Assembly: GCA_964391675.1 (NCBI GenBank)
Contig: CAYMMX010000006.1
Span: 33,546-97,545, forward strand
Source: an uncultured Muribaculaceae bacterium
GTDB lineage: Bacteria > Cyanobacteriota > Vampirovibrionia > Gastranaerophilales > Gastranaerophilaceae
DNA length: 64,000 nt
Direction of reading: 5' to 3'
Shown here: positions 20,414-50,100 of the stretch, one piece after another
Numbering within the stretch: position 1 is the first letter of the stretch
Layout of the letters: each line of letters starts with the position of its first letter
The notes under the pieces: generated by a model
The model's database searches: none
Told to the model about the DNA's origin: nothing
What the model saw: only the letters and a program-made list of their open reading frames with translations
Translations under genes and position numbers: made by a program

Positions 20414-20773
20414 ATGACAAAAAAAGATGAAAATGATATTGAACAAAAATTATTAAATAGCACGTCTTTTGATGAATTAATCAAAAAAAAAATAGAAACA
20501 GAGCTGAAAAATGAAATAGAAAAAGCAAAAATTAAAACTCAAACTCAAACAATAACAGATATTTCAAAAGTTCCGTCTGAATTAATTTTCAGTAAAAAGT
20601 CTACCTACAGAATATTTAATAAAGTAAACAAAACAGAAAGTTTTATAAATGGACTTCAGGCAGAATCAATGTTGGGACTGCAAAATAATGTAAGAGAAAA
20701 AATAAAAAATGGAAAAGTCGATGTATTTTCAACTGAAGAACTATATATTAAATTTGAGAAAACTGAATATTAA
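20414..20773 (+). CDS. hypothetical phage-island protein (119 aa)
   Basis: SD AAAGGAG upstream. No motif recognised. Confidence 0.55.
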   Translation: MTKKDENDIEQKLLNSTSFDELIKKKIETELKNEIEKAKIKTQTQTITDISKVPSELIFSKKSTYRIFNKVNKTESFINGLQAESMLGLQNNVREKIKNGKVDVFSTEELYIKFEKTEY

Positions 20774-20798
20774 AAAGAGCGGATAAACCGCTCTTTTT
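20772..20798. terminator. bidirectional terminator between convergent genes
   Basis: AAAAAGAGCGG-ataaa-CCGCTCTTTTT. The A and T tracts on both sides allow termination in either direction. Confidence 0.7.
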
Positions 20799-20816
20799 AA
20801 TTATAGCATTAAAATA

Positions 20817-21272: not shown

Positions 21273-21333
21273 ATAAACACCATCCTTTCATTTGAGATAA
21301 TTGTATAAGTTTATTTGGAAAAAGTCAAGAGCT

Positions 21334-21876
21334 ATGAGCAAATTTATAAAAATAATAGTAAATAAGAATGAAGGTAAATTCTTAAATATTGAATATTTAC
21401 CTAATATTATAACCTTATACGAAAAATTCTCCCGCTATATTCATGATGATTATTTTTTAGAAAATAAATCTATTGTGGATGCTGTAATTAATCTAGTTGA
21501 AAAAACAACTCCATTTTTTTGGGGGATTCTAGATAAAAAAAATGAAAAATTTGCAGGGTTTTGTTTCTTAGAAAATTTAACAGGGAATAGTAAAAATTTA
21601 CACAGTGCAGATATTACAACTTGCTTTGAACCTGAATTTTGGGGAAACTACACAAAAAAATGTGCTCAGAAATTCATAAAATACTGTTTTAAAAAATATA
21701 AGTTCGAGAAATTAAAAGCATATATTTTTCCTCAAAACTCAAGAGTTAAAGCTCTTTTAAAAAAAAGTGGGTTTAAAAAAGAAGCTTTATTAAAGGCTGA
21801 AACATATAAAAATGGTATTTTACAAGATATTGAAATATATTCACTTATTAAAACAAGCAACAAAAAGGAGATTTAA
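21334..21876 (+). CDS. GNAT-family N-acetyltransferase (RimJ/RimL-like)
   Basis: 'FAGFCFLENL...', 'WGNYTKKCAQKFIKYCFKKYKFEKLKAYIFPQNSRVKALLKKSGFKKEALLK' fits the Acetyltransf_3-like pattern. I prefer the ATG at 21334 over the TTG at 21301. Confidence 0.72.
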   Translation: MSKFIKIIVNKNEGKFLNIEYLPNIITLYEKFSRYIHDDYFLENKSIVDAVINLVEKTTPFFWGILDKKNEKFAGFCFLENLTGNSKNLHSADITTCFEPEFWGNYTKKCAQKFIKYCFKKYKFEKLKAYIFPQNSRVKALLKKSGFKKEALLKAETYKNGILQDIEIYSLIKTSNKKEI

Positions 21877-21878
21877 TA

Positions 21879-23540: not shown

Positions 23541-23559
23541 AAAGCTGGAAGTAGAGAGA

Positions 23560-23591
23560 AGACGCAGAATCAATTAATTGATTCTGCGTCT
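23560..23591. repeat. 32-nt perfect palindrome between the portal candidate and the large terminase gene
   Basis: AGACGCAGAATCAATT|AATTGATTCTGCGTCT. It starts 20 nt after the portal stop and ends 17 nt before the terL ATG. Confidence 0.95.
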
Positions 23592-23608
23592 ATTTAAAAT
23601 AGGAAAAA

Positions 23609-24901
23609 ATGGAATATAATTTATTAAAAGCACAAAGAGAATTTTTAGAAATTCCACATGATTACAGTCTAGATGTTGCAGTGTATCAAGGAGGTTTCGG
23701 GTCTGGAAAAACTTTTTCCGGCTCTCTTCTTGGAATACTCTTATGCATAAAATTCCCCGGAATAAGAGGGCTTGTTGGGGCACAAACTTATACTCTGGTT
23801 AGAGATACAACATTACAAACATATTTTGAACACTTTGAAAACTTGAATTTTAAAGATGGAAAAGACTATGAATGGTCGACTTCATTACAAAAATTGACGT
23901 TTAAAAATGGTTCGGAAATATTATTTAGGCATTTTGACGAGCCAAACAAACTTAAATCCCTAAATTTGGGGTTTGCTGAAATTGAAGAAATGTCTGATAT
24001 TCCCTTTTCTACTTTTAAAATGCTTCTTGGTAGAATGAGACAAACAATAAAAAAAGAATGGAAAAATTTTACTTATAGAATTTTTGGACACACAAACCCT
24101 GAAATACAAAGAGGGTGGATTTATAAAACATTTATAGAAAATTATAAACCGAATTACCGTATAATTTCCGCGCCAACAACTGAAAATGTATATCTTCCCG
24201 AAGGCTTTTGTGAAGAACTTAAAAAATTATATGATGAAGAATATTATAGGATTTTTGTTCTTGCTCAAAATGGAGAATATAATTCGGGACTAGTTATAAA
24301 AGATTTTACACATGAGAACATAAAAGAAATTTACTACCAACAAGATATGAACTTACATATAACATGTGATTTTAACGTAGATCCGATGGCTTGGATTTTA
24401 GCTCATAAAACTGATGATAAAGTTTTCTTTTTTGATGAAATAGTAATGGAAAATACAACAACCGCAAAAGCTTGTGATGAATTTTATTACAGATATCCTA
24501 ATCACAAAGGAAAAATTATTATAAACGGTGATGCATCCGGAGACAATAGAAGTTGTACCAGTGAATTCACTAATTACGTAATTATAAAGAAAAAACTTGA
24601 AAGATTTGGGTATGAAGATATTGAAGTACAAATTAAAGCCTTTAACCCACCAATAAAAAACAGAATAATGGCTTTCAATTCAAGGATAAGGTCAGCAGAT
24701 TCTCAAATAAGGCTTTATGTTGATAAAAAATGCGAAAAACTTCTCTATAATATCTATAATTTAAAATACAAAGAAGGTTCTTCTAAAATTGATTTGCCAT
24801 CACACTCTCAAATTAAACAAGCAAAAGAACTGAAGTTTTTAGGTCACCCAATGGATGCTGCATCATATTTAGTTGAGTTTTATTGGCCGATAACAATATG
24901 A
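23609..24901 (+). CDS. phage terminase large subunit
   Basis: Walker A 'YQGGFGSGKTFSG', Walker B-like 'LGFAEIEE', and a C-terminal nuclease half with 'ITCDFNVDP' and 'INGDASGDNRS'. Confidence 0.85.
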   Translation: MEYNLLKAQREFLEIPHDYSLDVAVYQGGFGSGKTFSGSLLGILLCIKFPGIRGLVGAQTYTLVRDTTLQTYFEHFENLNFKDGKDYEWSTSLQKLTFKNGSEILFRHFDEPNKLKSLNLGFAEIEEMSDIPFSTFKMLLGRMRQTIKKEWKNFTYRIFGHTNPEIQRGWIYKTFIENYKPNYRIISAPTTENVYLPEGFCEELKKLYDEEYYRIFVLAQNGEYNSGLVIKDFTHENIKEIYYQQDMNLHITCDFNVDPMAWILAHKTDDKVFFFDEIVMENTTTAKACDEFYYRYPNHKGKIIINGDASGDNRSCTSEFTNYVIIKKKLERFGYEDIEVQIKAFNPPIKNRIMAFNSRIRSADSQIRLYVDKKCEKLLYNIYNLKYKEGSSKIDLPSHSQIKQAKELKFLGHPMDAASYLVEFYWPITI

Positions 24902-24912
24902 GAAAGGAATAA

Positions 24913-25149
24913 ATGGAAAAACTTTTACATTACTCTCCTATATTAATTGCAGTTATGATTTTTTTAATTCAGCAAAGAATAGTAATTACACCAGAGCAAC
25001 TGGAAAAAAAACATCGTGAAATTCTTAAAGATGCAGAAGAAAGATTTGCAACACTAAGCAGTGTTCGAGATTTAAAAGAACAGTTTACAGACATGAAAGA
25101 CAAAATAGACAAAATTTATGACTGTATCATTGCAGTTAAAAAAAACTAA
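24913..25149 (+). CDS. small membrane-anchored coiled-coil protein (78 aa)
   Basis: SD GAAAGGAA upstream. An N-terminal TM 'YSPILIAVMIFLIQQRIVI' is followed by a charged helix. Confidence 0.5.
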   Translation: MEKLLHYSPILIAVMIFLIQQRIVITPEQLEKKHREILKDAEERFATLSSVRDLKEQFTDMKDKIDKIYDCIIAVKKN

Positions 25150-31583: not shown

Positions 31584-32281
31584 ATAAAGTTATTGACCTG
31601 ATTGAAAAATTTGCACCGATTTATTCTCAAGAACCTTGGGATAATTCCGGATATCAAATTAGCTTTGAAAATAGAGAAATTAAAAAGATACTTTTATGCC
31701 TTACCATAACAAAACAAATTATTGATCAAGCAAAAGAAAAAAAATGTGATATGATAATTTCCCATCACCCGCTTTTTTTTATTCCATTTGAGTTTAATAA
31801 AAATATCCCGATTTATTCTGCACATACAAATTTGGATAAATCGGATAATGGGACTACAGATACTTTAATAGATGTTTTAGGATTTTCAAATAACAAGGCG
31901 CAAAAAATCGGAGATTTTTTGCGCCTTGTTACCCTCGATAGAAGTATACCAGTTAAAGACTTTGCTGATTTATTAAAATCTAAATTAGAAATTAAAAATA
32001 TTCGAATTGTAAACAATTTAAATAAACAAGAGATTAAAGAAATAGCCTTTTGTTCAGGAAGCGGGGCAGATTTTATTTCACTTGCAGAGCAATATTGCGC
32101 AGATGGATTTGTAACAGGTGATGTTAAATACCATACAGCAATGGAAAGTAATGTTATAATATTTGATATAGGGCATTTTGAAAGTGAAAAGCCGGTATTA
32201 AAAACATTAGAAAAAGTTATAAAACAGCTTGGAGTTGAAACAGTTATCGCAGATGAAAAGAGTCCTTTTATTACTTGTTAG
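31574..32281 (+). CDS. Nif3-like dinuclear metal-centre protein
   Basis: 'WDNSGYQ', 'ISHHPLFF', 'YSAHTNLD' and 'TGDVKYH'. Confidence 0.8.
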   Translation: MEINKVIDLIEKFAPIYSQEPWDNSGYQISFENREIKKILLCLTITKQIIDQAKEKKCDMIISHHPLFFIPFEFNKNIPIYSAHTNLDKSDNGTTDTLIDVLGFSNNKAQKIGDFLRLVTLDRSIPVKDFADLLKSKLEIKNIRIVNNLNKQEIKEIAFCSGSGADFISLAEQYCADGFVTGDVKYHTAMESNVIIFDIGHFESEKPVLKTLEKVIKQLGVETVIADEKSPFITC

Positions 32282-32801
32282 CTTATTTATAAGTCAAACT
32301 GTTTGGGCTTATCAAACAGTTCTGGTTGATTTTCCAAAGAATCAAGGTTGGCGCTCGGTTTATTATGATAGCCAATATTCAGAAGCGATTTTACAATATG
32401 TTCCGGCAGGGCAAACATATACAAACTGGACAAAAACTGTTATTTTTCACTCCTATAAAAACATATGGACAGATAGTGCTGCACAACTTATGAACAGATT
32501 AACCCAACAAATGGAATTACAAAATTCGAGTCAATTATATAAATATACAAAGTATTCCGATGCAGATTCTATTTCTACAAGATGTGTACAAAAAAATGCA
32601 AATATTCCCACGCAATGTGAAATTTTTAGAATATCTAAATCTTATGATGGGCTTATATCAATGCATTACATAAATAAAAACGTAATTGATTTTAGAAATT
32701 CATATGATGTATGGTATGACATTATGAAAAATATTACTATTTATTATAGCTACTATATGGACGATAGAATTATGAATAAAGCAACATCTTTTGAACTGTA
32801 A
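32253..32801 (+). CDS. hypothetical secreted protein (182 aa)
   Basis: Starting from the ATG at 32253 gives a signal peptide 'MKRVLLLLVSLFISQTVWA'; the ORF-track start at 32229 is TTG. No family recognised. It lies directly upstream of the GT-C array. Confidence 0.55.
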   Translation: MKRVLLLLVSLFISQTVWAYQTVLVDFPKNQGWRSVYYDSQYSEAILQYVPAGQTYTNWTKTVIFHSYKNIWTDSAAQLMNRLTQQMELQNSSQLYKYTKYSDADSISTRCVQKNANIPTQCEIFRISKSYDGLISMHYINKNVIDFRNSYDVWYDIMKNITIYYSYYMDDRIMNKATSFEL

Positions 32802-32850
32802 AAAGAGTTTTTATTGACAGTAATTATTTTTCTAAATAAAATTAGTTAAA

Positions 32851-34614
32851 ATGAAAAAGATTAAAAATATTATTTGTAATAAGTATTTTATCATCTGCTT
32901 AATAACTTTATTTGGTTTATTTATTCGTTTGCTTAATATTGATAAACCTACCGGACTTTGGTGGGATGAAATGAGTACATATATTTTTTCATCCAAACCA
33001 CTACCTTTTGGAATTATTAAAAGTCTATGGAATTCGGATGTACATATGCCATTGTTTTTTATTTATTTAGGGACATGGATTAAACTTTTTGGTACAAAAG
33101 ATATTATCTTAAGGCTTGCATCTGTTTTTTGGAGTATTTTATCAATCCCTGCCTTCTTTTATCTGGGCAAGACCTATAAATCAGAAAAATTAGGCTATTT
33201 ACTTGCAATAATAGCGTGCCTTAATCCTATTATTATTTATTATTCACAAGAAATAAGATTTTATTCTATGGTTATTTTTCTTGGAATTATTTCTTTAATA
33301 TTTTTTCTAAAAACAATCGAAACACCAAGTTATAAAAACTTAATTATCCTCTCTTTTATTAATTTAGTGCTGTTATATACATATTCTATGGGAATTATTT
33401 TTGTCCTAGCAGAACTGTTTATAATTATATCTGATTTTTATTCACATAATAGAACTTCATTAAAAAAAGTACTTAAAGTAAAAACCGTTTTATTTATATT
33501 ATTAATACCTTATTTTATACTACTGTTTCACTATCTTCTTAGAGAAACTTTATTTGAAATACCTGCGTGGGGGCCTTTATTTTGCAAATATCCTATTTTA
33601 GTAATAAATGACTGGTTTAGTCCTTTTTTAGCGAGTGTGCATGGAAATCAAAAAAACTTATACGAATTTTATTTAAGTAGTAATAAAGGCATATTATATT
33701 TAATAATACAACTTATCCCAACATTTTGTTTTATAACTGGATTCGCTCTAAACATAAGAGAAACAAACAAAAAATTTCTTTATGTTTTAACAATACTTTT
33801 GGCATTTATTTTAGCAGAGACGATATTATGGGCAAAAGGTCCTTTTGTTTTTATAGTCAGATATACATTAATAGTACTACCGATAATTCTGCTACTTTGC
33901 ACTAATGGACTAATGCTTATAAAAAATCTAAAAATACAATATTTAATATTCAGTTTAATAATAATAATTTATATAAATAATATCTTTCATTATAAAACAG
34001 CAAGGACATTTGAACAAAATCCTGCAGGATTAAGACCACCGTCAGAAAGGTTAATGAAACTAAATCCTGATAAAGATTACTTAATGGCATTAGACGGCTC
34101 TATTATTTTTAAAAAATATATTAAAAATTTTAACTTTCTCAATTTCGATATAAATGAAATATTATACCAATCAGACAAACAAAAAGAAGCCTATAAAGTA
34201 TTCGACAAAAACTTTATAGAAACAATAAATAAAAAGAACTATTTACAGAAATTTATTCCTTTTTTAAAAAATCCTGAACCAACTTATGAACTGAAAGTTT
34301 TTCTTAATTCTGAGGTAAATAAAATCCCAGAAGGGAAGAGATTGATTTACATCGAAGGTCCCTTTGCCGTAGAAGATTGGCCAATGAATTCAATTAATAA
34401 TTTTATATTTGCTTTAGAAAACAATCTTGTCAGTAAAAAAGATTATAAGGATTTTGTTTATTATTTTGTTCGTGCAAAAATTAGTGATAATGTAAAAATA
34501 TCATTGAAAAATAATCCTTCATTAATTAAAATAAATGAATTCAAAATGAATTCACCTTACACAAAATATTTAATGCCGGTAAAATATACCTTTTATGTAT
34601 ATAAAAAAGTTTAA
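32851..34614 (+). CDS. GT-C fold membrane glycosyltransferase (GT39/ArnT/PMT_2-like), tandem paralogue 1
   Basis: 587 aa and polytopic. First-loop 'GLWWDEMS' (DE catalytic motif), 'HMPLFFIYLG' and 'YYSQEIRFYS'. It has a ~200-aa C-terminal soluble domain ending 'FYVYKKV'. Confidence 0.8.
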   Translation: MKKIKNIICNKYFIICLITLFGLFIRLLNIDKPTGLWWDEMSTYIFSSKPLPFGIIKSLWNSDVHMPLFFIYLGTWIKLFGTKDIILRLASVFWSILSIPAFFYLGKTYKSEKLGYLLAIIACLNPIIIYYSQEIRFYSMVIFLGIISLIFFLKTIETPSYKNLIILSFINLVLLYTYSMGIIFVLAELFIIISDFYSHNRTSLKKVLKVKTVLFILLIPYFILLFHYLLRETLFEIPAWGPLFCKYPILVINDWFSPFLASVHGNQKNLYEFYLSSNKGILYLIIQLIPTFCFITGFALNIRETNKKFLYVLTILLAFILAETILWAKGPFVFIVRYTLIVLPIILLLCTNGLMLIKNLKIQYLIFSLIIIIYINNIFHYKTARTFEQNPAGLRPPSERLMKLNPDKDYLMALDGSIIFKKYIKNFNFLNFDINEILYQSDKQKEAYKVFDKNFIETINKKNYLQKFIPFLKNPEPTYELKVFLNSEVNKIPEGKRLIYIEGPFAVEDWPMNSINNFIFALENNLVSKKDYKDFVYYFVRAKISDNVKISLKNNPSLIKINEFKMNSPYTKYLMPVKYTFYVYKKV

Positions 34615-34629
34615 GGATAGAGAAATTAG

Positions 34630-36408
34630 ATGAAAACAGATAAGTTAAAAAAAATACTAACAAATCGTTATTTCATATTGTTAATAATCACAATATTTGC
34701 ATTATTTATACGACTGCTAAACATAGATAAAATATACGGCTTATGGAATGATGAAGCAATAACTTATCTTTTTGCATCTCAAAAATTTCCTTTTGGTATA
34801 ATAAAAGTATTTTTGAAAGAAGATTTTCATATGCCTTTTTATTACATATACCTCGGCGGATGGATGAGAATTTTTGGGACAGATGATATTACATTAAGAC
34901 TTACATCTGTTATTTGTGGAGTTTTAACAATTCCTGCTTTATTCTATTTAGGCAAGACTTGCTGTTCAGAAAAAACAGGTTACCTGCTTTCTTTAATAGG
35001 CTGCTTGAATCCTGCTATGATTTACTATTCACAAGAGATAAGATTTTATTCTATGGTAACTTTTTTCTCAACTGTTTCACTAATATTTTTGCTAAAAATA
35101 TTAGATACCCCGGACAAAAAAAATATTATACCGTTTTTTCTAACAAACTTACTAATTTTGTATACATATACAATGGGAATAGTTTTTGTTGCAGTTGAAA
35201 TGGCTGTGATATTTTTTCATTTTTATAAATATAAAAAAGAATTCTTAAAAACATTTTTCATACATTCACTTATTTTTCTATTTTTAAGTATTCCTTATTT
35301 TATATTATTGTCAATACACATATATGGGGCTAATCAAACAATCATCGAACCAATTGCTTGGGGCTATATACGGAAACCATTTCTTCTTTTGCTAATAAAT
35401 GATTGGTTCAGTATATTTTTTTCTTGCCACCTTCAACAAGATGTCAGTAAATATCTTGCTCTCTTCAAAAGCATAAGCGGATTTTTCTATTTTTTATTTT
35501 TTACAAGTGCTTCTCTTTGCTTTATAACAGGATTTATATTTAGCCTTAAAAATTTAAACAGAAAAATCAGTTATCTTTTAATAATAGCCGGAACTTTCAT
35601 TTTAACAGAAATATTTCTACAACTCAAAGGTAATTTAATAATTATTACAAAGTATACCCTCATTGTTCTTCCTATAATTTTACTTATTTGTGCAAACGGG
35701 ATAACACTTATAAAAAATAAGAAAATAAGTTATACATTAATCAGTATAATATTTTTAGTTTATATATTTAATTTGATTAATTATAAAAACATGAATGCCT
35801 TCATGCACAGATATAATGGATTTAAATACCCCGCGCAAAAAATAATGCAACTAAACCCAAATAATGATTACTTTATGGCACTAAACAGAGCGCAATTATA
35901 CAGAAAATACCTTAAAAATTTAATTTATATCGATTTTGATGTACCGGGGATTGTATATTTATATAAAGATAAGACCGCTAGTTTTAATTTTTTTAATAAA
36001 GATTTTATCCTCGCAACAAATAAACATAATTCCAACAATAGAATGATTCCTTATTTATTAAGCCCCTTTCCGACAATAGAATTACAAAATTATATAAATT
36101 CAAACATACAAAAGATACCGAAAGGCAAAAGATTAATATATCTTGAAGGCCCTTATTTTGGTAAAGATACAGACTTTGAACCATATATTAATGATTTTGT
36201 TAGAAGATATCTGACTGGGATAATTAAACCTCAGACTTATCAAGCGGATTTACTTCTCTTTTTAATATCAAAAATCAGTATAGATACAAAAAAAATCCTA
36301 AAAAATAACAGTTCATTAATTAAGGTAAACGAAATAAGATTTAGTTCGCCGGATTATTCTATGGACAAATATGTTCACTATAAAATTTTCGTTTACAAAA
36401 AATTGTAG
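34630..36408 (+). CDS. GT-C fold membrane glycosyltransferase, tandem paralogue 2
   Basis: 592 aa. 'GLWNDEAI', 'HMPFYYIYLG', 'YYSQEIRFYS', and C-terminal 'IFVYKKL'. There is a 15-nt gap to paralogue 1 and an SD, AAGGA. Confidence 0.8.
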   Translation: MKTDKLKKILTNRYFILLIITIFALFIRLLNIDKIYGLWNDEAITYLFASQKFPFGIIKVFLKEDFHMPFYYIYLGGWMRIFGTDDITLRLTSVICGVLTIPALFYLGKTCCSEKTGYLLSLIGCLNPAMIYYSQEIRFYSMVTFFSTVSLIFLLKILDTPDKKNIIPFFLTNLLILYTYTMGIVFVAVEMAVIFFHFYKYKKEFLKTFFIHSLIFLFLSIPYFILLSIHIYGANQTIIEPIAWGYIRKPFLLLLINDWFSIFFSCHLQQDVSKYLALFKSISGFFYFLFFTSASLCFITGFIFSLKNLNRKISYLLIIAGTFILTEIFLQLKGNLIIITKYTLIVLPIILLICANGITLIKNKKISYTLISIIFLVYIFNLINYKNMNAFMHRYNGFKYPAQKIMQLNPNNDYFMALNRAQLYRKYLKNLIYIDFDVPGIVYLYKDKTASFNFFNKDFILATNKHNSNNRMIPYLLSPFPTIELQNYINSNIQKIPKGKRLIYLEGPYFGKDTDFEPYINDFVRRYLTGIIKPQTYQADLLLFLISKISIDTKKILKNNSSLIKVNEIRFSSPDYSMDKYVHYKIFVYKKL

Positions 36409-36416
36409 GTATAAAA

Positions 36417-38189
36417 TTGAATAAAAGTAAAATTAAATCAATATTACATAATAAATATTTTATAATAACAGTATTAACTATACTTGCATTTCTTATACGG
36501 TTATTAAATATAGACAAGCCATTAGGGCTTTGGTACGATGAAATGATTTGTTATATCTTCGCTTCAAAAGAATTTCCTTTTGGTATTTTAAAAGCACTGC
36601 TAAGAGAAGATTGTCATATGCCTCTTTATTATCTATATCTAAATTTTTGGATGAATTTTTTAGGGACCGAAGATATTGCTTTAAGACTATCATCAGTAAT
36701 TTGGGGTGTTTTAACTATTCCCGCTTTATTCTTTTTAGGTAAAACTTACAGGTCTGAAAAATTAGGTTATTTATTAGCAAGTGTAGGATGTATAAGTCCT
36801 GTGCTAATTTATTTTTCTCAAGAATTAAGATTTTATTCTTTATTAATATTTTTATCGACAATATCAATTACATATTTTTTAAAATTATTACAAGACAAAA
36901 ATAATAAAAATATAATTATATTTTTTATTACAAATTTAATAATTTTATATATTTATACAATGGGTATTGCTTTTGTATCTTTAGAATTACTAATCCTATT
37001 TTATGACTCTTATATTAGCAAAAAAAATGATTTGCTTAATTTGTCAAAAGCCGTTTTAATTTTTTTAATATTATCAATACCATATTTTATGTTCCTGATC
37101 TTCCAAATATATGGTTTTAGTCAAGTATTTGCAGATCCTTTCGGGTCAGGGAAATTAAGCTGGTTTGCGCCTTTAATATTACTAAACGATTGTTTTAGTC
37201 CATTTATGACAACATTCTTTAACCACGATGTACAAATTTATAAATTATTTGCAACTACACCAATAAAAACACTTCAATTAATATTTATGTCAAGTTCGAC
37301 CGTATGCTTTATCAGTGGTTTTATAATCAGCTTAAAAAATAATAGTAGAAATTTTTATTACCTTCTTTTTATAACGACTGCTTTTATCCTAATACAATAC
37401 GTTCTTTCTGTTTTAGATTGCTACATAATATTAGTAAAATATACTTCGGTATTTTTGCCTATACTTTTTTTATTATGTTTAGACGGATTACTTTTAATCA
37501 AAAATAAATACCTGAAAATATCTTTAATAAGCATAATTTTTATAGTATTTGTTTGGAATATAATAAATTATAAAGAAACCAGAGCATTTGAATACCGATA
37601 TGGAGGATTAAAACCTGCAGCAGATATATTAATGAGCCTAAATCCCGATGGAGACTATGTTCTTGAGCTTGAAAGAACGGAGTTATTAAAAAAATATGTT
37701 AAAAACTATAATTTTATTGACTTTGACTCACATAGAGTAATATATCTTGATAGACAAAAAAAAGAAGCTTTAAAAATATTTGATGAAAATTTTGTAAAAG
37801 AAACAAATAAGCATAACTCACCTGAAAAATTGGTCAGCTACTTTATAAATCCGGAACCCACGGATAAATTTAAAAATTATATTAATTCACAACTAAATAC
37901 AATTCCAAAAAATAAACGATTTATATTTATTGAAGGTCCATTTTATGGCGGGGAATCAGACATAACTATAATTAATCAATATGTAACCAATTACCATTTA
38001 GGCTTTGTAAAAAGAAAAGAATATAAAAAAGAATTATTCTTTTTAATAAACGAAAAGATATCTGCTGATATTAAAAATATTCTTAAAAATAATCCGACAT
38101 TAATAAAGATTGATGAAATTAAAATGAGACAATCATATTATGCAGCACGAAATATAAGATATAATTTTTACATATATAAAAAGATATAG
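36417..38189 (+). CDS. GT-C fold membrane glycosyltransferase, tandem paralogue 3 (TTG start)
   Basis: 590 aa. 'GLWYDEMI', 'HMPLYYLYLN', 'YFSQELRFYS', and C-terminal 'FYIYKKI'. There is an 8-nt gap to paralogue 2. Confidence 0.78.
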   Translation: MNKSKIKSILHNKYFIITVLTILAFLIRLLNIDKPLGLWYDEMICYIFASKEFPFGILKALLREDCHMPLYYLYLNFWMNFLGTEDIALRLSSVIWGVLTIPALFFLGKTYRSEKLGYLLASVGCISPVLIYFSQELRFYSLLIFLSTISITYFLKLLQDKNNKNIIIFFITNLIILYIYTMGIAFVSLELLILFYDSYISKKNDLLNLSKAVLIFLILSIPYFMFLIFQIYGFSQVFADPFGSGKLSWFAPLILLNDCFSPFMTTFFNHDVQIYKLFATTPIKTLQLIFMSSSTVCFISGFIISLKNNSRNFYYLLFITTAFILIQYVLSVLDCYIILVKYTSVFLPILFLLCLDGLLLIKNKYLKISLISIIFIVFVWNIINYKETRAFEYRYGGLKPAADILMSLNPDGDYVLELERTELLKKYVKNYNFIDFDSHRVIYLDRQKKEALKIFDENFVKETNKHNSPEKLVSYFINPEPTDKFKNYINSQLNTIPKNKRFIFIEGPFYGGESDITIINQYVTNYHLGFVKRKEYKKELFFLINEKISADIKNILKNNPTLIKIDEIKMRQSYYAARNIRYNFYIYKKI

Positions 38190-38203
38190 GAATCAAATAA
38201 CGA

Positions 38204-39967
38204 ATGATAAAAGATAAAATTAAATTTATTCTTAAAAATAAATACTTACAAATAATATTAATAACAATATTAGCAGCTATTGTTAGATTAATCAGTATAA
38301 ATAGAGAAACAGGGCTTTGGTATGATGAAATGATAACTTACATTTTATCTTCTAAAGATTCATTTTCAGCAATAATGCAGGGACTCTTAAAAGAAGAATA
38401 TCATATGCCGCTTTATTATTTTTATATAAATATTTGGACAAAATTATTTGGAACAAACGACATAATTTTACGATTATCGTCTGCTATTTGGGGAATTCTA
38501 ACAATTCCCGCTTTGTATATTTTGGGAAGTATTTATAAATCAAAAAAAGTCGGTTGCTTGCTTGCTTTAATAGGAAGTCTTAGCCCAATATTAATTTACT
38601 ATTCACAAGAATTTAGATTTTATGCTTTAGCAATTTTTTTAGCAACCGTTTCCGTAATTTTTTTACTTAAAAGTATTGATGCTCCAAATAAGACTAATTT
38701 GTTTTTTTTATATTCAACTAATTTGATTTTAATATATATATATTCTTTGAGTATTATTTTTGTGGGTTTGGAGATTTTATTACTTTTAATACATTTTTTT
38801 AGCGAAAAAAAAGAATTTCTAAAAAACTTTACCATAATTACAACAATATTTTTTATATTGACAATTCCATACTGCTTAATACTCTTAAATTTTTTATACA
38901 CTTCAAATCAAGTTTTTGTAGATGCTATGGGTTGGGCAATACTTAATAATTTATCAATTTTATTTATATTAAACGATTTGCTCTCACCTTTTATAACTTG
39001 CTATTACGGGCATGATCCAAATGCATATTTTCAATTGATACAAAACCCAGCTACAATTAGTTTAAGCTTATTTTTATATTTACCATGCATTTGTCTAATT
39101 TGTGGATTGATATTCGAACTTCTAAATCTAAGCAAAAAAAGTAAATACATGTTAATAATTCTATTTTCTTTTATGTCCATAGAATTGCTGCTTGCATACC
39201 TTGGAAATATTTCATTAATAAGCAGATATACATTAATAGTGGTTCCTATTATTTTATTAATGTCCGCAAGCGGAATACTTTCATTAAAAAATAAATTCAT
39301 AAAATATGCTATGATTGGAATTATATTAACGTCTTTCTCTTATTTTGCATTAGAAAATAATAAATATCCGAATATAAAAGTTGATGGGGTAAAACCGCCT
39401 GCAGATATATTAATGCAAGAAAATCCTGATAATGATTATTTAATCGCAACAGAACGTTCAGAAATATTAAAAAAATATGTTAAAAGGTTTAATTTTATTG
39501 ATTTTGATTCGCATAAAATAATAGTAATGGATAAAACAAAACAAGAAAATTTAAAAATATTTGATAAAAATTTTGTAAAAACAACAAATATACATAATTC
39601 TACAAAAAAATTGGTTAAGTACTTCTTAGACTCAAATCCTACACCTGATTTACAAAATTTTGTAAATAATCAAATATCTATAATCCCAAAAAATAAATAC
39701 CTATACTTTGTTGAAGGACCCAATTACTACGGAAAAACAGATAATAATAGTATGATAATGTATACATTAGCTTACATAAATGGATTGATAAGTGAAAAGG
39801 AATACAGAAATACAATGTTTTTAAGATTAAATGAAAAAATAAATTTTGATTTAAAAAATGCATTAAAAAATAATATTTCATTAAAAGAAATTGAAGTAAA
39901 AACTACAACAATATCAAATGGTTTTATTAACTGCAGGTGGGATATAACAATTTATAAAAAATTATAA
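38204..39967 (+). CDS. GT-C fold membrane glycosyltransferase, tandem paralogue 4
   Basis: 587 aa. 'GLWYDEMI', 'HMPLYYFYIN', 'YYSQEFRFYA', and C-terminal 'ITIYKKL'. There is a 14-nt gap to paralogue 3 and an SD, AGGAA. Confidence 0.8.
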   Translation: MIKDKIKFILKNKYLQIILITILAAIVRLISINRETGLWYDEMITYILSSKDSFSAIMQGLLKEEYHMPLYYFYINIWTKLFGTNDIILRLSSAIWGILTIPALYILGSIYKSKKVGCLLALIGSLSPILIYYSQEFRFYALAIFLATVSVIFLLKSIDAPNKTNLFFLYSTNLILIYIYSLSIIFVGLEILLLLIHFFSEKKEFLKNFTIITTIFFILTIPYCLILLNFLYTSNQVFVDAMGWAILNNLSILFILNDLLSPFITCYYGHDPNAYFQLIQNPATISLSLFLYLPCICLICGLIFELLNLSKKSKYMLIILFSFMSIELLLAYLGNISLISRYTLIVVPIILLMSASGILSLKNKFIKYAMIGIILTSFSYFALENNKYPNIKVDGVKPPADILMQENPDNDYLIATERSEILKKYVKRFNFIDFDSHKIIVMDKTKQENLKIFDKNFVKTTNIHNSTKKLVKYFLDSNPTPDLQNFVNNQISIIPKNKYLYFVEGPNYYGKTDNNSMIMYTLAYINGLISEKEYRNTMFLRLNEKINFDLKNALKNNISLKEIEVKTTTISNGFINCRWDITIYKKL

Positions 39968-43467: not shown

Positions 43468-45246
43468 ATGAACAACTCTTTACAAAAGAATAAAAAACAA
43501 TTATTAACTGAAAAAATTGAAACAATCGCAAAAAATCATCCTGAAATACTTTGTTTAAGTATAATTGCAATCAGTTGTTTATTCTTTTTATTCTTTGGCT
43601 TGGGTTTTTACCCCTTAATAGATGTTGATGAAACAAGATATGCAGTTATGGCAAGAGATTTAATATATTCCAACGACTGGAACAGTTTAATGCTTAACAA
43701 AATTCCGTTTCTGGAAAAACCTCCGTTATATTTTTGGATTGTTGGTGCATCAATAAAGATATTCGGTGATTTTAATCCATTTATAGTAAGATTGCCTATA
43801 GCAATCTTAACTTCTTTTTTAGTTTTCTTTACATATTTTTTAGGCCGCAGGGTAATATCAAGAAAATTTGGCGTTATTAGCTCTATTACCCTGCTTTCCA
43901 GTACGTTTTTTTTAATATTATCACATATTGCCATTCTTGATATGGTTCTAACGATATTCATGACAAGTGCAATATATTTTGGATTTTTAACCCATTTTTG
44001 CAAAGAAGAAAATAAAGAGTATTATTGGTTTTTGTTTTATGTTTTTATGGGGCTTGGTTTTTTGGCAAAAGGTATTTTAGCCCTTGTAATTCCCGTTACA
44101 ATAATGTTTATATGTAATTTTCTAACAAAGTCAATTAAAGATATTTTTAAACCGATAAACTTACTACCCGGGCTAATTGTCTTTATTGCAATAATTACAC
44201 CATGGCATGTAATCATGTATCAAAAATATGGTTATTTATTTGTTAAAGATTATTTTTTAATCCACCATTTCGGAAGATTTATGGGTTCGGAATATCTTGG
44301 CAGAGAAAGACCTATATGGTATTTTATACCCGTATTTTTAGCAGGTTTTATGCCTTGGACTTTTGTATTTATATCTTATGTTGTTAACAACTTTAAAAAA
44401 CTGAAAGTAAAATTTAAAAGTATAAACGGGAATTTTTTAATAAAATTACAAAATATACTTACTGTCGAAAATAATGAACAAAAACTAATTTTATTTGCAA
44501 CGGTAAGTTTCATAATAATATTTTGTTTATTTAGCAGTTCAAGTACTAAATTACCTACGTACATCTTGCCTGTTTTTCCTTTTGCAGCAATCTTAATAGG
44601 ACATTTTTGGTACACAAGCGAAGAAAAAAATGAAAACCAAAAAACAATCTATTCTACAGGAATGTTTTTTGCAATATTATTGATAACAATAGCTATAAGC
44701 GCAACATTTTCTTATTATTTTATGCCTGAAGATTTAAAAGTAAAATTACTTACTGTAATGGATTTTTCAATACTAGGATTATATTTAATCGGAACATTTA
44801 TGCTTTTCAGGACAAATACAAAAAAAATTATGGCGATATATTCCGGCTATATAGTCACAATGATCTTTATAATAACACTTGCTGTAAATCAAATATTTTT
44901 ACTTGTGTATAACGGCGGTGAAAATGAGCTGATAGAATATTCTACATATAGCGCAAATTCTATAACCAAATCTCAGCTAGTAACTTTTGATTTTGCAGTA
45001 AAGCCGAGTATATTAATCAATTATAAGGATAAAGTGGATTTTATAACCGACCCGGACTTCAAAAAGTTAGATAATGCTTTAAGCTACAATAAAGGTCCGA
45101 CTTTTGTCATTGTAAAAAATAAAAATTTTAAAGATAATGAAAAATACAAACAAGAAATAGACAAACGATTAAACTTATTAAAAATAGGTGATAGATACTC
45201 CTTATACGTGAGAAATCCTAAAAACAGAATTTTAACCTATTATTAA
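43468..45246 (+). CDS. GT-C fold membrane glycosyltransferase, canonical ArnT/PMT_2-like (fifth GT-C gene in the window)
   Basis: 592 aa. 'YPLIDVDETRYAVMARDL', 'FLEKPPLYFWI' and 'GFLAKG'. Its C-terminal domain is unrelated to that of the tandem array. Confidence 0.85.
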   Translation: MNNSLQKNKKQLLTEKIETIAKNHPEILCLSIIAISCLFFLFFGLGFYPLIDVDETRYAVMARDLIYSNDWNSLMLNKIPFLEKPPLYFWIVGASIKIFGDFNPFIVRLPIAILTSFLVFFTYFLGRRVISRKFGVISSITLLSSTFFLILSHIAILDMVLTIFMTSAIYFGFLTHFCKEENKEYYWFLFYVFMGLGFLAKGILALVIPVTIMFICNFLTKSIKDIFKPINLLPGLIVFIAIITPWHVIMYQKYGYLFVKDYFLIHHFGRFMGSEYLGRERPIWYFIPVFLAGFMPWTFVFISYVVNNFKKLKVKFKSINGNFLIKLQNILTVENNEQKLILFATVSFIIIFCLFSSSSTKLPTYILPVFPFAAILIGHFWYTSEEKNENQKTIYSTGMFFAILLITIAISATFSYYFMPEDLKVKLLTVMDFSILGLYLIGTFMLFRTNTKKIMAIYSGYIVTMIFIITLAVNQIFLLVYNGGENELIEYSTYSANSITKSQLVTFDFAVKPSILINYKDKVDFITDPDFKKLDNALSYNKGPTFVIVKNKNFKDNEKYKQEIDKRLNLLKIGDRYSLYVRNPKNRILTYY

Positions 45247-46127: not shown

Positions 46128-47372
46128 ATGGATAAAAAAACGGCTAAAAAAGTACTAATCATAGGTTCTTCTGCAGAGGAATATTCTCTTGCAAAAAAAT
46201 TGTCTCAACTTGAAGAGATTTCAGATGTTTTTGTAGCCCCCGGTAATGATGCAATGAAAGAATTCTCAACCGTTGTCGATATAAGAGAAAAAAACATTGA
46301 AGAATTGTTAGATTTTGCACTTGAAAACGAAATTAGTTTAACAGTAGCATCTAGCGAATCAGCAATAAAAGAAGATATTGCAACAATATTTCAACAAAAT
46401 AATCAAATGATATTTGCTCCAACAAAAGACAGTGCCTATATTTGCTTGAACAAATCCGCATGTAAAAAATTTATGTATAAAATAAAAATTCCATGTCCAA
46501 GGTTTGGTATTTTTGATAAAGCGACATTAGCTATTGATTACGTAAGAAAATCCAATATGCCGTTAGTAATAAAAACCGACATTCACCAAAATAAAGGTGT
46601 GCTAATTTGTAATTCTTTTTCTTACGCTAAAGATTTTATTGAATATCTTTTTGAAAATAACGAAAAAAAAGTAATAATAGAAGATTACATTTTTGGACAC
46701 GAATTTTCTTTTTATGTCATAACTGACGGATATCATGCCCTCCCTATAGGAACTGTAGCGAATTACAAACATGAACTGGAAGGCAATGGTGGTCATTTAA
46801 CCTCCGGTCTGGGTTCTTATGCTCCAGATTATAAAATTTCAAAGCAAACAGAAGACAAAATTCTAAAACAAATAATTTATCCTTTGTTAGACACTCTCGC
46901 AAAACAACAAACTCCATATGTAGGTATTCTTGGTGTGAGCTTGGTTATTGATGATTTAGAACAATTATTTGCTCTCGAATTTAACACATTCTTAAAGTCA
47001 CCTGATTGCCAAACAATTTTGCCACTTATTGATGAAAATATTTATAATTTGTTTGAAGCATGCTCAATAGGTTCTTTTGCAGACGATTATGAAACAATAG
47101 ATATTTCAGATAATGCTGCTGTTTCTTGCGTCATTTCAACAAAAGAGAAAGATTCTATTATTTATGGACTGGATGATTTAGATGAAAACACCTTAGTTGC
47201 TCATTTTAATACAATAAAAAATAAATATCTTGAATATGAAACTGTTGAAGGCAGAACTTTAATTTTAACAAGAAAAGCAAGGGTTCTATCAAAAGCAATA
47301 AACGATTTATATGATGAAATTCCTATAATAAAATTTAATGGCATGAAATATCGTAAAGATATTGGGAAATAA
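46128..47372 (+). CDS. PurD-like ATP-grasp protein with substituted hallmark motifs; function uncertain
   Basis: 414 aa, colinear with phosphoribosylamine-glycine ligase ('VFVAPGN', 'PLVIKTD', 'IEDYIFGHEFSF', C-terminal 'RKDIG'). However 'GGREHA' reads 'SSAEEYS', 'GPNTGGMG' reads 'GHLTSGLG', and 'RFGDPE' reads 'FLKSPD'. Confidence 0.65.
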   Translation: MDKKTAKKVLIIGSSAEEYSLAKKLSQLEEISDVFVAPGNDAMKEFSTVVDIREKNIEELLDFALENEISLTVASSESAIKEDIATIFQQNNQMIFAPTKDSAYICLNKSACKKFMYKIKIPCPRFGIFDKATLAIDYVRKSNMPLVIKTDIHQNKGVLICNSFSYAKDFIEYLFENNEKKVIIEDYIFGHEFSFYVITDGYHALPIGTVANYKHELEGNGGHLTSGLGSYAPDYKISKQTEDKILKQIIYPLLDTLAKQQTPYVGILGVSLVIDDLEQLFALEFNTFLKSPDCQTILPLIDENIYNLFEACSIGSFADDYETIDISDNAAVSCVISTKEKDSIIYGLDDLDENTLVAHFNTIKNKYLEYETVEGRTLILTRKARVLSKAINDLYDEIPIIKFNGMKYRKDIGK

Positions 47373-47407
47373 ATAAGCGAAATTTCATTATGAAATTTCG
47401 CTTATTT
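47371..47407. terminator. bidirectional hairpin between the purD-like gene and the convergent HEAT-like gene
   Basis: AAATAAGCGAAATTTC-(loop)-GAAATTTCGCTTATTT, starting at the stop codon. Confidence 0.6.
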
Positions 47408-47428
47408 ATAATTTAAACTTTAATATTT

Positions 47429-47731
47429 TTAATTAATTTCACTTATTAAATATCTTGCAACCCATTCAAAGTCTTTATTTGTTTCAGCAGCTTGTTTAAG
47501 GTATTCAACAGAAGCGTTACCGATTCTAATTAGAGTCATTGCAACAACACCTCTTTTAACACCTTGCACTACTTGCAATTGATCTACTAATTCAGGAACA
47601 GCATGTTTTCCGATACTAACTAGTTTATTTTCAATTTCGTTTTTAGATATATTATCAGCATTTTCTAATTTTGATAAAAAGTACTGAATTGAATTTGTTG
47701 TATCTTCTACCTTATTAAGCACTGCTTGCAT
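47429..47731 (-). CDS. small HEAT-repeat-like protein
   Basis: 'GKHAVPELVDQLQVVQGVKRGVVAMTLIRIGNASVEYL' is HEAT/PBS-lyase-like. I prefer the ATG at 47731, which has AGGAG 10 nt upstream, over the TTG at 47788. Confidence 0.5.
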   Translation of the reverse strand: MQAVLNKVEDTTNSIQYFLSKLENADNISKNEIENKLVSIGKHAVPELVDQLQVVQGVKRGVVAMTLIRIGNASVEYLKQAAETNKDFEWVARYLISEIN

Positions 47732-48123
47732 TTTTTGATATCTCCTACTTGTCTTTTTAAATATTGGGGTATTTACTCCCATATTCAATCTTCTTTTACT
47801 AATTATTATTATATGGTAAAAAATAATTAAATATGGTTTTCCTTACATAATCTTAATATGCATATAAAGAAATAAAATATTTAAATTTCAAATTATATTT
47901 ATTTTTTAACTTCTTACTTAATATTAAATAAAACTACCCACTCATCTGATGGTGTTATAGTCTAAAAGGGGATTTTTTACCATATAAAAACATTTAAACT
48001 TATTTCAGAAAGAAGAAATAAATACAATGGCAGTAGTGTCTTTTTCAATAAAATTGAAATTATATAAACACAAACAGAAATGTATTTGTTTTGATAGTAC
48101 TCAATACATTGGGAGTGGTCGTT

Positions 48124-48432
48124 ATGTTAATGGAGAATTGCCAGGCGGACTGTAACAAATACGGTCACATGGAATTAAAAAATGTCAATAAAGACATCAT
48201 ATCATGGCTTGAAGACATAATTGAAGAAAACAATAGCAGAATAGAACGAAAAGAATGGAAAAGTAAATACAACAGCTATGTAGTATATGATTATGAACCG
48301 TTCTGTGCTGATGGTTTTGAGATTAATTTGCTTATAAGCTCATATGATTATTCCTATCTGAATTTCATTAAATATCTATATGAAGAAAAAATTAATACTA
48401 TTGAATATTTAAACAATTGTATAAGTGTTTAA
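48124..48432 (+). CDS. hypothetical 102-aa protein
   Basis: The ATG at 48124 has GGGAG upstream. No family recognised. A terminator follows. Confidence 0.45.
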   Translation: MLMENCQADCNKYGHMELKNVNKDIISWLEDIIEENNSRIERKEWKSKYNSYVVYDYEPFCADGFEINLLISSYDYSYLNFIKYLYEEKINTIEYLNNCISV

Positions 48433-48439
48433 TGAACCA

Positions 48440-48469
48440 AAAAGACTATTCAAAATGAATAGTCTTTTT
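48440..48469 (+). terminator. Rho-independent terminator
   Basis: AAAAGACTATTC-aaaat-GAATAGTCTTTT followed by T-rich sequence. Confidence 0.65.
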
Positions 48470-48658
48470 ATTTATAAAGGCATGACTAAAATTAATTTCA
48501 ATTATTTTTTATCAAAGAAATTTGTATTGTCAATAAATTTATTATTTAATTTTTACGTAAATTCATTAAATTTGCTTCATTAAGAATGTAAAAAAATATT
48601 TTTTTAAAGCCAGTAAAAGAATTTAGTCTATTGTAAAAATTATTTTAATTTTTGTTAC

Positions 48659-48687
48659 TTGTCAAGTAATTTACATAAAGTTAAAAT
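48659..48687 (+). promoter_or_regulatory. sigma-70-like promoter candidate
   Basis: TTGTCA, a 17-nt spacer, then TAAAAT. Such hexamers also arise by chance in AT-rich DNA. Confidence 0.3.
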
Positions 48688-48908
48688 TTAATAAGTAAAG
48701 AGAAGTAGGAAAAAAGAATTAGAATAAAAAAGGGGTGATGGTAAAGTACTTTACAAATCTTGGGGCAAATTAAAGCTGATGAATAAGGTGGAGAAAGTTA
48801 ATAAGTTTAAAATACTAAATTATCAATAAGATAAAAAGTTAAAATTAGATTTGAAAGTATAAATAAGAAATAGCTGTAGGCTAGTACTTTAGACATGGGG
48901 ATGTTGCA

Positions 48909-48950
48909 AAATAGCGAAAATTTTATCAGAAAATAAAATTTTCGCTATTT
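48909..48950 (+). terminator. 17-bp hairpin ending 25 nt upstream of the anmK start (terminator or attenuator candidate with a weak U-tract)
   Basis: AAATAGCGAAAATTTTA-(8 nt)-TAAAATTTTCGCTATTT, followed by ATGTATTTTA. Confidence 0.5.
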
Positions 48951-48975
48951 ATGTATTTTAATTTATAATTAACTT

Positions 48976-50100
48976 ATGAATAATTTAGAAACAAAAAAAA
49001 TAATATCACTTATGTCAGGTACATCATGTGATTCAATTGATGTAGGGCTATGCGAAGTAATGCCTGATTTTAGCTGCAAATTAATTGAAGGCATAAATTA
49101 TAAATATCCTGACTCAATTAGGAATAAGCTGTTTGAATTTTTTCAGCAAAATGCTACATTACAAGATATATGTCAAATGAATTTTGTCGTAGGAAAATGT
49201 TTTGCCAATGCAGCAACCGAACTAATTAAAAAGTATGGAAAACCTGATTTTATATCATCGCACGGGCAAACTATATTTCATTATCCGTTTGAAGATAAAC
49301 TGGATGATATAAAATTAAAAAGCACTTTACAAATAGGTGAATCCTCTGTTATTGCACAAGATACCGGATGCATGACCATATCAAACTTTAGAGAAGCAGA
49401 TATTGCACAAGGAGGACAAGGTGCACCATTAGTTTGTTTTGCTGATAATATCTGGTTTAAAGGTAAAAATGTTGCCATTCAAAATATAGGTGGGATTTCA
49501 AATGTTACGGTTATATCCGATAATTGTGAAACTTTTGGTTTTGATACAGGAGTAGGAAACATTATGATTGATTATTGCTGCCAGAAGTTTTTTAATATGC
49601 CTTATGACAAAGATGGAGAAATTGCCATTCAGGGAACCGTTTCAGAAAACTGGCTAAATTGCTTACTTGAAGATGAATACTATATTTATCCTCCGCCTAA
49701 AACAACCGGAAGAGAATATTTTTCAGCACAATATATTGAAAATGCTTTGAAATTAGCACCTGAAAATTCTAAAGATACTATTGCAACATTAACTGCACTA
49801 ACTGCAAAATCTATAGCAAATGCTTATGAAAGATTTATATATCCGCAGACAAAAATTGAAGAAATTATACTTGGCGGAGGCGGATCTTACAACAAAACCC
49901 TAATTAATTTTTTAAGAACCTATTTACCTAAACATGTACAAATAAAGACACATGAAGATTATGAAATATCCAATAATTTTAAAGAAGTCATGGCTTTTGC
50001 TTTACTTGGATATTGCACATTCTACGGAATTCCAAATAACCTCCCGTCTTGTACCGGTGCAAATAAAAAAATTGTATTAGGCAAAATAACACCTGCTTAA
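48976..50100 (+). CDS. anmK: anhydro-N-acetylmuramic acid kinase
   Basis: 'ISLMSGTSCDSIDVGL', 'SHGQTIFH' and 'QNIGGISN'. Confidence 0.9.
   Translation: MNNLETKKIISLMSGTSCDSIDVGLCEVMPDFSCKLIEGINYKYPDSIRNKLFEFFQQNATLQDICQMNFVVGKCFANAATELIKKYGKPDFISSHGQTIFHYPFEDKLDDIKLKSTLQIGESSVIAQDTGCMTISNFREADIAQGGQGAPLVCFADNIWFKGKNVAIQNIGGISNVTVISDNCETFGFDTGVGNIMIDYCCQKFFNMPYDKDGEIAIQGTVSENWLNCLLEDEYYIYPPPKTTGREYFSAQYIENALKLAPENSKDTIATLTALTAKSIANAYERFIYPQTKIEEIILGGGGSYNKTLINFLRTYLPKHVQIKTHEDYEISNNFKEVMAFALLGYCTFYGIPNNLPSCTGANKKIVLGKITPA

Follow-up and report, generated by a model that had tools for sequence, protein, structure and literature searches.

Why would a bacterium keep four diverged copies of one membrane glycosyltransferase side by side, and what would it use them for? 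The question is raised by a 64,000-nucleotide stretch of contig CAYMMX010000006.1 (assembly GCA_964391675.1), here called the window, from an uncultured bacterium of the Gastranaerophilaceae. This family belongs to the Melainabacteria (Vampirovibrionia), uncultured gut and environmental relatives of the cyanobacteria, whose cell envelope is, to our knowledge, essentially unstudied. An earlier note, made from the DNA letters of the window, had described four same-strand open reading frames (ORFs) of 587-592 amino acids (aa) separated by gaps of 15, 8 and 14 nucleotides (nt), and ORF calls bear out this description (Table 1). We refer to the four genes as the array and to their products as copies 1 to 4. 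In our judgement the array probably, although by no means certainly, encodes periplasmic transferases of the GT-C class that pass sugars from polyprenyl phosphate to an envelope glycan, with paralogue specificities that have diverged and a changing copy number that leads to surface diversity.

The class assignment comes from structure modelling. An AlphaFold2 model of copy 3, the copy chosen for this purpose, was built from a 37-sequence alignment and reached a mean predicted local distance difference test score (pLDDT) of 91.5 and a predicted template-modelling score (pTM) of 0.91. When the model was compared with known structures by Foldseek, 27 of 27 matches with E <= 0.001 were GT-C enzymes (STT3, PglB, ArnT, DPY19, Pmt4, AglB, ALG9 and AftD; TMq 0.40-0.53), and the match probability was 1.0 for STT3, PglB, ArnT, DPY19, PMT, AftD and Emb. 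The matches to STT3 and PglB (E ~4e-7 to 5e-6, TMq ~0.5) run through the transmembrane (TM) core only, the match to Emb is confined to the same core (TMq 0.33-0.40), and the highest TM-scores among the fold matches, 0.52-0.57, belong to ArnT. In the model, ~13 membrane helices form the N-terminal, presumably catalytic part, and a soluble domain comes after them; Asp41-Glu42 stand directly after TM1, and a long, poorly conserved loop (residues 236-281) takes the position of external loop 5 (EL5) of PglB. Read from the fold, the proteins would lie N-in/C-out, which would place the C-terminal domain in the periplasm and the acidic dyad likewise outside the cytoplasm. That this Asp-Glu dyad is kept in all four copies had been claimed before and holds well beyond them, as it is invariant in 37 of 37 homologues and present in 27 of 27 array and outgroup proteins. 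By modelled fold and architecture, the closest known enzymes appear to be ArnT and PglB.

Sequence profiles capture much less of this relationship. Among curated sequence families, only PMT_2 (PF13231) picks up the array proteins, over residues ~66-220. Its cutoff of 26.1 bits is exceeded by copy 2 alone, the scores of copies 1-4 being 18.5, 27.8, 19.2 and 25.6 bits. NCBIfam gave sub-threshold matches only (Agl23, the MT1671 mannosyltransferase and the LA_3751/LA_3752 family). In Pfam, neither PF02366 (PMT) nor MIR matched any array protein; PF02366 was matched only by a fifth GT-C gene farther along the window. The first-loop motif of ArnT, DExRYA...(Y)FEKPP..W, is likewise missing from the array proteins, which read GLWxDE(M/A)xxY...HMP[LF][FY][FY], and PRK13279, the ArnT model, matches the fifth gene and none of the four. 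The earlier label "GT39/ArnT/PMT-like" is therefore sound at the level of the fold, whereas it is the fifth gene, and not the array, to which the motif of ArnT and the models for ArnT and PMT apply. The same caution applies to membership in Pfam PMT_2 and to the name 'glycosyltransferase family 39 protein', which NCBI gives to a distant Gastranaerophilales relative, as one copy in four exceeds the cutoff and the PF02366 and MIR signatures are missing. A test for the oligosaccharyltransferase motif WWDYG also failed, since no copy contains a WWD motif and the C-terminal domain of copy 3 has no tryptophan. The motifs that had been quoted as common to the array are all present, with trivial deviations in copy 2 (LEGP, FVYKKL). 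Going by the models, we regard the array proteins as probable GT-C fold glycosyltransferases of an uncharacterised subfamily restricted to the Melainabacteria.

The distribution of homologues is in line with such a restriction. When one genome per GTDB species was scanned by pattern, 145 relatives emerged, nearly all from metagenome-assembled genomes (MAGs) of Melainabacteria/Gastranaerophilales, some of them labelled 'Brachyspira sp. CAG:484', and the best of the 145 was only ~30% identical. Closer homologues (38-63% identity) came almost entirely from Logan metagenome assemblies. Between the prolyl-tRNA synthetase (ProRS) of the window and its counterpart in a Gastranaerophilaceae MAG (L065) the identity is 71%, and the lineage of the window thus has no species representative in the one-genome-per-species set. 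It had been considered that the array might be an operon type already characterised in this lineage; in the literature and curated models that we searched, no publication or model describes the family or a characterised operon of this type.

How old are the duplications? The estimate by eye that the copies are about half identical was slightly too high: in pairwise BLASTP, full-length identity is 39-47%, with 43-51% in the N-terminal ~395 aa. In the C-terminal ~195 aa it is 36-50%, so the C-terminal domains are indeed alike across the copies, as the earlier note had proposed. Among the copies in the window, variation peaks at residues 241-300, a loop with 24-31% identity, and at residues 511-540 in the C-terminal domain. 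A bootstrapped neighbor-joining tree resolved four ortholog groups, supported at 80, 100, 100 and 99% for groups 1, 2, 3 and 4, and these correspond to array positions 1-4 in the window and in two related contigs, L001 and L082. The four groups consequently predate the split of these three lineages. The closest stretch between copies at the DNA level, found in a repeat search, was 300 nt at 62-71% identity, and since the best match is at most 71% there has been no recent gene conversion among the copies. Both results uphold the view that the duplications are old. The G+C content of the array region, 23-27%, is that of the remainder of the window. Copy 1 is 43-49% identical to its group-1 orthologs (L001, L082, L087, L088), and group 1 is the fastest-evolving group; copy 2 is 54-65% identical and copy 4 44-58% identical to their respective orthologs. 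Across 18 ortholog-group members 55 columns are invariant, and the residue before the dyad follows the ortholog group, being W/F in group 1, N in group 2 (5/5) and Y in groups 3 and 4.

The number of copies is not fixed. Our synteny set consisted of the window and eight contigs (L001, L082-L085, L087-L089), which share the gene order ProRS, gmk, coaBC, NIF3, a gene of ~185 codons that we call u190, in some cases a flavin adenine dinucleotide (FAD) oxidoreductase gene, then one to several GT-C genes, and convergent fliA, flhB and deoC. In the window the stop codons of copy 4 and fliA are only 4 nt apart. Four GT-C copies occupy this site in the window, L001 and L082, three in L083, L087 and L088, and one in L084/L085 and L089; the oxidoreductase gene precedes the first GT-C gene in L082, L083, L084, L085 and L089, and is absent from this place in the window, L001, L087 and L088. 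L087 and L088 carry types 2-1-4 in this order, that is, with types 1 and 2 swapped relative to the window and without type 3. The pair L083_1/L083_2 and the two copies of L086, a contig with a different genomic context, are independent duplications (100% bootstrap each). Taken together, the same-site copy numbers and the tree show tandem expansion within the lineage from a single ancestral gene, a process that is still changing the locus: the array grew from one copy to three or four and is still being gained, lost and reordered. None of this has left visible decay. In all 25 array genes from nine loci the ORF is full-length and the dyad is in place, and nearly all keep SQE.RFY and [RK]YT; disabled copies in related strains, which the earlier note had named as a sign of decaying duplicates, were not found among these loci, each copy in each relative being an intact ORF. 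The array evolves markedly faster than its surroundings, because array orthologs in L001 are 49-65% identical to those of the window, compared with 72-92% for the flanking genes and 75% for the ArnT-like fifth gene. Fast evolution of this kind is what diversification of a surface glycan would predict.

The soluble domain at the C-terminus is the most distinctive part of these proteins. Modelled alone from 35 sequences, the domain of copy 3 reached a pLDDT of 93.0 and a pTM of 0.90, and folds as an alpha/beta domain that ends in a long beta-hairpin bearing the conserved Y-K-K terminus; its conserved residues are G5, K34, Y35, F63, N75, P89, K155, Y195 and K197. A search of 1.84 billion representative proteins with a hidden Markov model (HMM) of the domain returned 117 clusters, and in every case the domain sat at the C-terminus of proteins of ~545-620 aa or in fragments. 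At the sensitivity of HMMER, the domain is thus private to the family, as had been proposed. Nor is it detectable in the fifth GT-C, which has a soluble tail of its own of ~110 aa: hhalign gave a probability of 0.1% for a relationship between the domain profile and that tail. An impression by eye that the two share the terminal hairpin is likewise unsupported by hhalign. Foldseek of the domain against the PDB gave weak matches, and the top 50 were all class-I S-adenosylmethionine-dependent methyltransferase Rossmann folds (TM 0.28-0.38, root-mean-square deviation ~10-16 A). We read the domain, on the strength of its model, as a Rossmann-like scaffold. An active methyltransferase was rejected on account of the low TM-scores, the lack of a glycine-rich GxGxG after beta-1 and of any Pfam methyltransferase match, and the periplasmic location predicted from the fold. 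That the domain recognizes the acceptor, as the earlier note suggested, is pure conjecture.

Two lines of evidence bear on the sugar donor, and both come from relatives. First, the family as seen among GTDB loci splits in two, the a-type to which the window's genes belong and a widespread, mostly single-copy b-type that lacks the C-terminal domain. In 60 of 76 b-type loci we found a glycosyltransferase of family GT2, ~318 aa long and with TM helices at its C-terminus; its gene is mostly a divergent next-door neighbor. The best NCBIfam matches of this GT2, all below cutoffs, were to polyprenyl-phosphate sugar synthases, namely AglJ, PpgS, ArnC and a Dol-P-hexose transferase. Secondly, in the closest outgroups the two types occur together. 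The cluster of L003 reads GT2(polyprenyl-P) - GT-C(b) - GT4 - FAD oxidoreductase - GT-C(a), and that of L002 holds the same genes plus a further GT2 and a methyltransferase. The composition of these clusters supports a polyprenyl-phosphate-sugar-dependent pathway for an envelope glycan. By analogy with these systems, a polyprenyl-phosphate-linked sugar would be the donor of the array enzymes as well.

The FAD oxidoreductase offers a further connection. In L002, L003, L082, L083, L084/L085 and L089 its gene overlaps the start of the a-type GT-C gene, and the two are probably translationally coupled. The protein has an amine-oxidase/NAD_binding_8 fold and exceeds the cutoff of NCBIfam PRK07208.1-2, an equivalog of unknown function. 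Such tight coupling in the gene order suggests that oxidoreductase and transferase act in a shared pathway. The gene has been lost from the window, where it is absent between positions 32801 and 32851, as well as from L001, L087 and L088, and it was found neither elsewhere in the window nor in L090 and L091, two additional flanking contigs from this organism.

According to our reading, a GT2 synthase with its gene at another place in the genome would load a sugar onto polyprenyl phosphate at the cytoplasmic face, the lipid-linked sugar would be flipped across the membrane, and on the periplasmic side each paralogue would then pass it on to an acceptor, or a position, of its own in an envelope glycan, whether LPS/O-antigen-like (LPS, lipopolysaccharide) or another surface polysaccharide. 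Known systems provide partial precedents. ArnT (GT83; structures PDB 5EZM/5F15) transfers L-Ara4N (4-amino-4-deoxy-L-arabinose) from undecaprenyl phosphate to lipid A, and shares with the array proteins a length of ~550-590 aa, a polytopic N-terminal module followed by a soluble alpha/beta domain, the acidic dyad after TM1 and, by analogy, a polyprenyl-monophosphate sugar donor; it differs in that there is no match at the sequence level, the array reading GLWxDE...HMPLYY where ArnT has DExRYA...FEKPP and the C-terminal domains being unrelated in sequence. Tandem GT-C paralogues have precedents, among them the mycobacterial embC-embA-embB genes, which are likewise co-oriented and diverged, and each of which encodes a C-terminal extracytoplasmic domain. 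The Emb enzymes transfer sugar from polyprenyl phosphate onto envelope polysaccharides, the mode that we propose for the array, and the FAD-dependent DprE1 step that makes their donor is a loose parallel to the oxidoreductase coupled to GT-C in the relatives. The differences should also be kept in mind, as Emb proteins have ~1,050-1,100 aa with carbohydrate-binding C-terminal modules, the relatives' FAD enzyme belongs to the amine-oxidase/PRK07208 family rather than to DprE1 and is absent from the window, and the copy number of the array is variable. In the gtr loci (GtrA/GtrB/GtrC; also CsbB/YfhO and PpgS/Rv3779) a GT2 synthase works with a variable, specificity-determining polytopic transferase that decorates a ready-made surface glycan, and the sister b-type subfamily resembles them in having its GT2 in the same locus. 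The array is unlike them in that no GT2 or GtrA-like flippase gene adjoins it in the window or in any syntenic relative, four tandem paralogues are atypical, and no sequence relation to known GtrC or YfhO models exists. As analogies, embCAB would be the closest in genomic organisation and gtr/CsbB-YfhO the closest in logic.

The proposal of envelope-glycan transfer should be interpreted with some caution, since several results weigh against it. The sequence-level membership of the array proteins in PMT_2 is borderline, and the family profiles, run against all PDB chains at E <= 1 in one case and E <= 10 in another, gave zero matches, so that the family is linked to known enzymes by fold comparison alone. 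The count of K+R over the loops (the positive-inside rule) was indecisive and does not by itself fix the topology. The family-associated GT2 was not found by tblastn in the window, L001 or L082-L089, Pfam scans of the window ORFs revealed no GT2 or GtrA gene, and neither a polyprenyl-phosphate sugar synthase gene nor a flippase gene lies in the window, in the extra flanks L090/L091 or beside any of the syntenic arrays; with no GT2 near the array, the donor is deduced from the sister subfamily and the two outgroup clusters. Strict group-specific signature columns number only 2 of ~590, which is thin evidence for distinct conserved specificities and gives no strong support to subfunctionalisation. 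Finally, nothing separates a glycan from protein or lipid A as acceptor of the array enzymes, and a glycan acceptor is thus unproven.

It could therefore be asked whether the acceptors are proteins. The array enzymes would then be O-glycosyltransferases like PMT or TfpW, moving polyprenyl-phosphate sugars to Ser/Thr of pilins, flagellar or S-layer proteins, with one set of proteins for each paralogue. PMT_2 as Pfam's sole match, PMT structures among the Foldseek matches and the weak NCBIfam matches to the archaeal Agl23 and MT1671 mannosyltransferase models are what this explanation would lead one to expect, and syntenic arrays always adjoin fliA-flhB. These flagellar genes, however, lie convergent on the opposite strand and are adjacent even where only one GT-C copy exists, which indicates synteny and not an operon, and PF02366 matches the fifth gene only, with no MIR or other known protein-binding module in the array proteins. 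The outgroup clusters, moreover, encode GT4 and GT2 enzymes, which are cytoplasmic and of the kind usual in the assembly of polysaccharides. We consider protein O-glycosylation unlikely, though deserving of serious attention. Alternatively, the products could form hetero-oligomers or an assembly line that adds successive residues to a periplasmic polymer, in the manner of EmbA-EmbB/EmbC or yeast Pmt1-Pmt2. Co-oriented genes in tandem, 8-15 nt apart, suggest that they are expressed together at a constant ratio, all four ortholog groups are kept together in three genomes, and the fold matches include structures of Emb and Aft. An obligate complex of four parts is nevertheless disfavored by the single copy of L084 and L089 and by the three reordered copies, without type 3, of L087 and L088, and we regard this arrangement as quite unlikely.

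The divergence of the copies could also reflect weak constraint, with redundant duplicates drifting under relaxed selection. The fast divergence of the array orthologs relative to their neighbors, a copy number anywhere from 1 to 4 and the near absence of columns fixed within every ortholog group yet differing between groups would all follow from such drift. Duplicates under relaxed selection would not be expected to remain full-length with the dyad, and nearly always with both further motifs, in 25 of 25 cases, nor to persist as four groups since before the split of the window, L001 and L082 lineages at the identities given above; the 55 invariant columns and the well-folded models of the C-terminal domain argue in the same direction. 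We attach hardly any credence to drift. At the other extreme stands a bolder version of envelope-glycan transfer, in which the array is a module for surface-glycan diversification: each paralogue would add a distinct decoration, the methyltransferase-like periplasmic domain would represent a new kind of acceptor recognition, and the gain, loss and reordering of copies would produce strain-level variation in surface antigens or phage receptors. If true, the array would be a functional analogue of the serotype-converting gtr loci, but chromosomal, multi-copy and GT-C-based, with a previously undescribed periplasmic domain. We put this version forward tentatively and think it improbable as a whole.

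Table 1. Positions of the array genes, their domains and other features discussed in the text. Coordinates refer to the window unless a contig is named.
Feature	Coordinates	Strand	Remarks
GT-C paralogue 1, ortholog group 1	32851..34614	+	ORF, 587 aa; Asp39-Glu40 codons 32965-32970
GT-C paralogue 2, ortholog group 2	34630..36408	+	ORF, 592 aa; Asp41-Glu42 codons 34750-34755; group-specific signature GLW-N-DE
GT-C paralogue 3, ortholog group 3	36417..38189	+	ORF, 590 aa, TTG start; Asp41-Glu42 codons 36537-36542
GT-C paralogue 4, ortholog group 4	38204..39967	+	ORF, 587 aa; Asp41-Glu42 codons 38324-38329
C-terminal soluble domain of copy 3 (~residues 393-590)	37593..38186	+	Stand-alone AlphaFold2 model and profile
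Equivalent C-terminal segments, other copies	~34018-34611, ~35815-36405, ~39374-39964	+	
u190, secreted-looking conserved protein, function unknown	32229..32801	+	190 aa from TTG; 182 aa from ATG 32253
Sigma-70-like promoter match	32814..32842	+	TTGACA-17-TAAAAT, 11/12; best match in region; 49-nt gap before copy 1
ArnT-type GT-C (fifth gene)	43468..45246	+	592 aa; motif DETRYA...FLEKPPLYFW
FAD oxidoreductase	L082:5015-6469; L083:4932-6497; L084:8446-10020; L089:8467-10032; L003:8425-10005; L002:8506-10017		
Arrays of order 2-1-4	L087:8232-13480; L088:6474-11743		
Extra GT-C downstream of purD	L088:19601-21217		538 aa
GT8 and GT9 (heptosyltransferase-like) genes plus neighbors	3993-4958, 7473-8480, 8534-9517, 9712-12162		
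comM-like Mg-chelatase gene	12299-13855		Intact
Prophage or remnant	14000-25000 (e.g. 21879-23540, 23609-24901)		Directly downstream of comM-like gene
Tract downstream of purD	47372-48976		~1.6 kb

The protein directly upstream, u190, has a signal-peptide-like N-terminus and no Pfam or NCBIfam match, and the earlier note had considered it a possible member of the array. This suggestion probably does not hold. The gene overlaps the end of NIF3, the FAD oxidoreductase gene comes between it and the first GT-C gene in five relatives, the arrays of L086, L002 and L003 have no u190 next to them, and a promoter-like site precedes copy 1; by these indications in the gene order u190 is most likely the tail of a gmk-coaBC-NIF3 operon. 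Across the syntenic relatives its identity is 63-78% throughout, regardless of how many GT-C genes they have. The promoter-like site itself is weak evidence, as such matches in this AT-rich region are no more numerous than in shuffled sequence. Only 8 nt separate its end from the start codon (ATG) of copy 1, and a functional site here would give the array its own promoter and a nearly leaderless mRNA.

The fifth GT-C gene lies outside the array family, since BLASTP against the array copies gave E >= 0.002 and the HMM of the array N-terminal domain does not match it. It scored 64.5 bits for PMT_2, 43.2 for PMT and 148.9 for PRK13279, is kept at the same position in L001, L082, L087 and L088 (72-75% identical in L001 and L082), and has a much lower rate of evolution than the array genes. 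Some relatives have an additional 538-aa GT-C gene downstream of purD, as in L088, where its product scored nearly equally against a- and b-type references (157 v 155 bits); there is none at this place in the window. The tract downstream of purD in the window contains short stop-to-stop frames only and no start-to-stop ORF >= 120 aa. No RNA family turned up when the window was scanned against Rfam.

Elsewhere in the window, GT8 and GT9 genes stand next to genes for a radical-SAM/SPASM protein and for an 816-aa N6-adenine DNA methylase; the methylase probably belongs to a restriction-modification system. Their family assignments suggest that the GT8 and GT9 genes serve LPS core synthesis. From the heptosyltransferase-like GT9, the GT8 and the ArnT-type genes together, an LPS-bearing diderm envelope seems likely. 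The comM-like gene is followed by a prophage or its remnant with a SU10-type portal, a large terminase, several ORFs without a family match and an elevated AT skew. The flank L091, which comes from another assembly of this organism, reaches its 10-kb limit just behind comM.

In conclusion, the locus presents a familiar enzyme class in a form peculiar to one lineage, and nothing known on GT-C enzymes is overturned by it. To specialists the combination of a private domain and a dynamic array will be noteworthy, though not surprising. The array defines a small GT-C subfamily, apparently confined to the Melainabacteria, with a predicted periplasmic domain of its own and an expansion that can be traced from one copy to three or four, and it constitutes a compact natural experiment in the evolution of GT-C specificity. 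For the organism itself, the array enzymes are concrete candidates for the activities that may shape its surface glycans.

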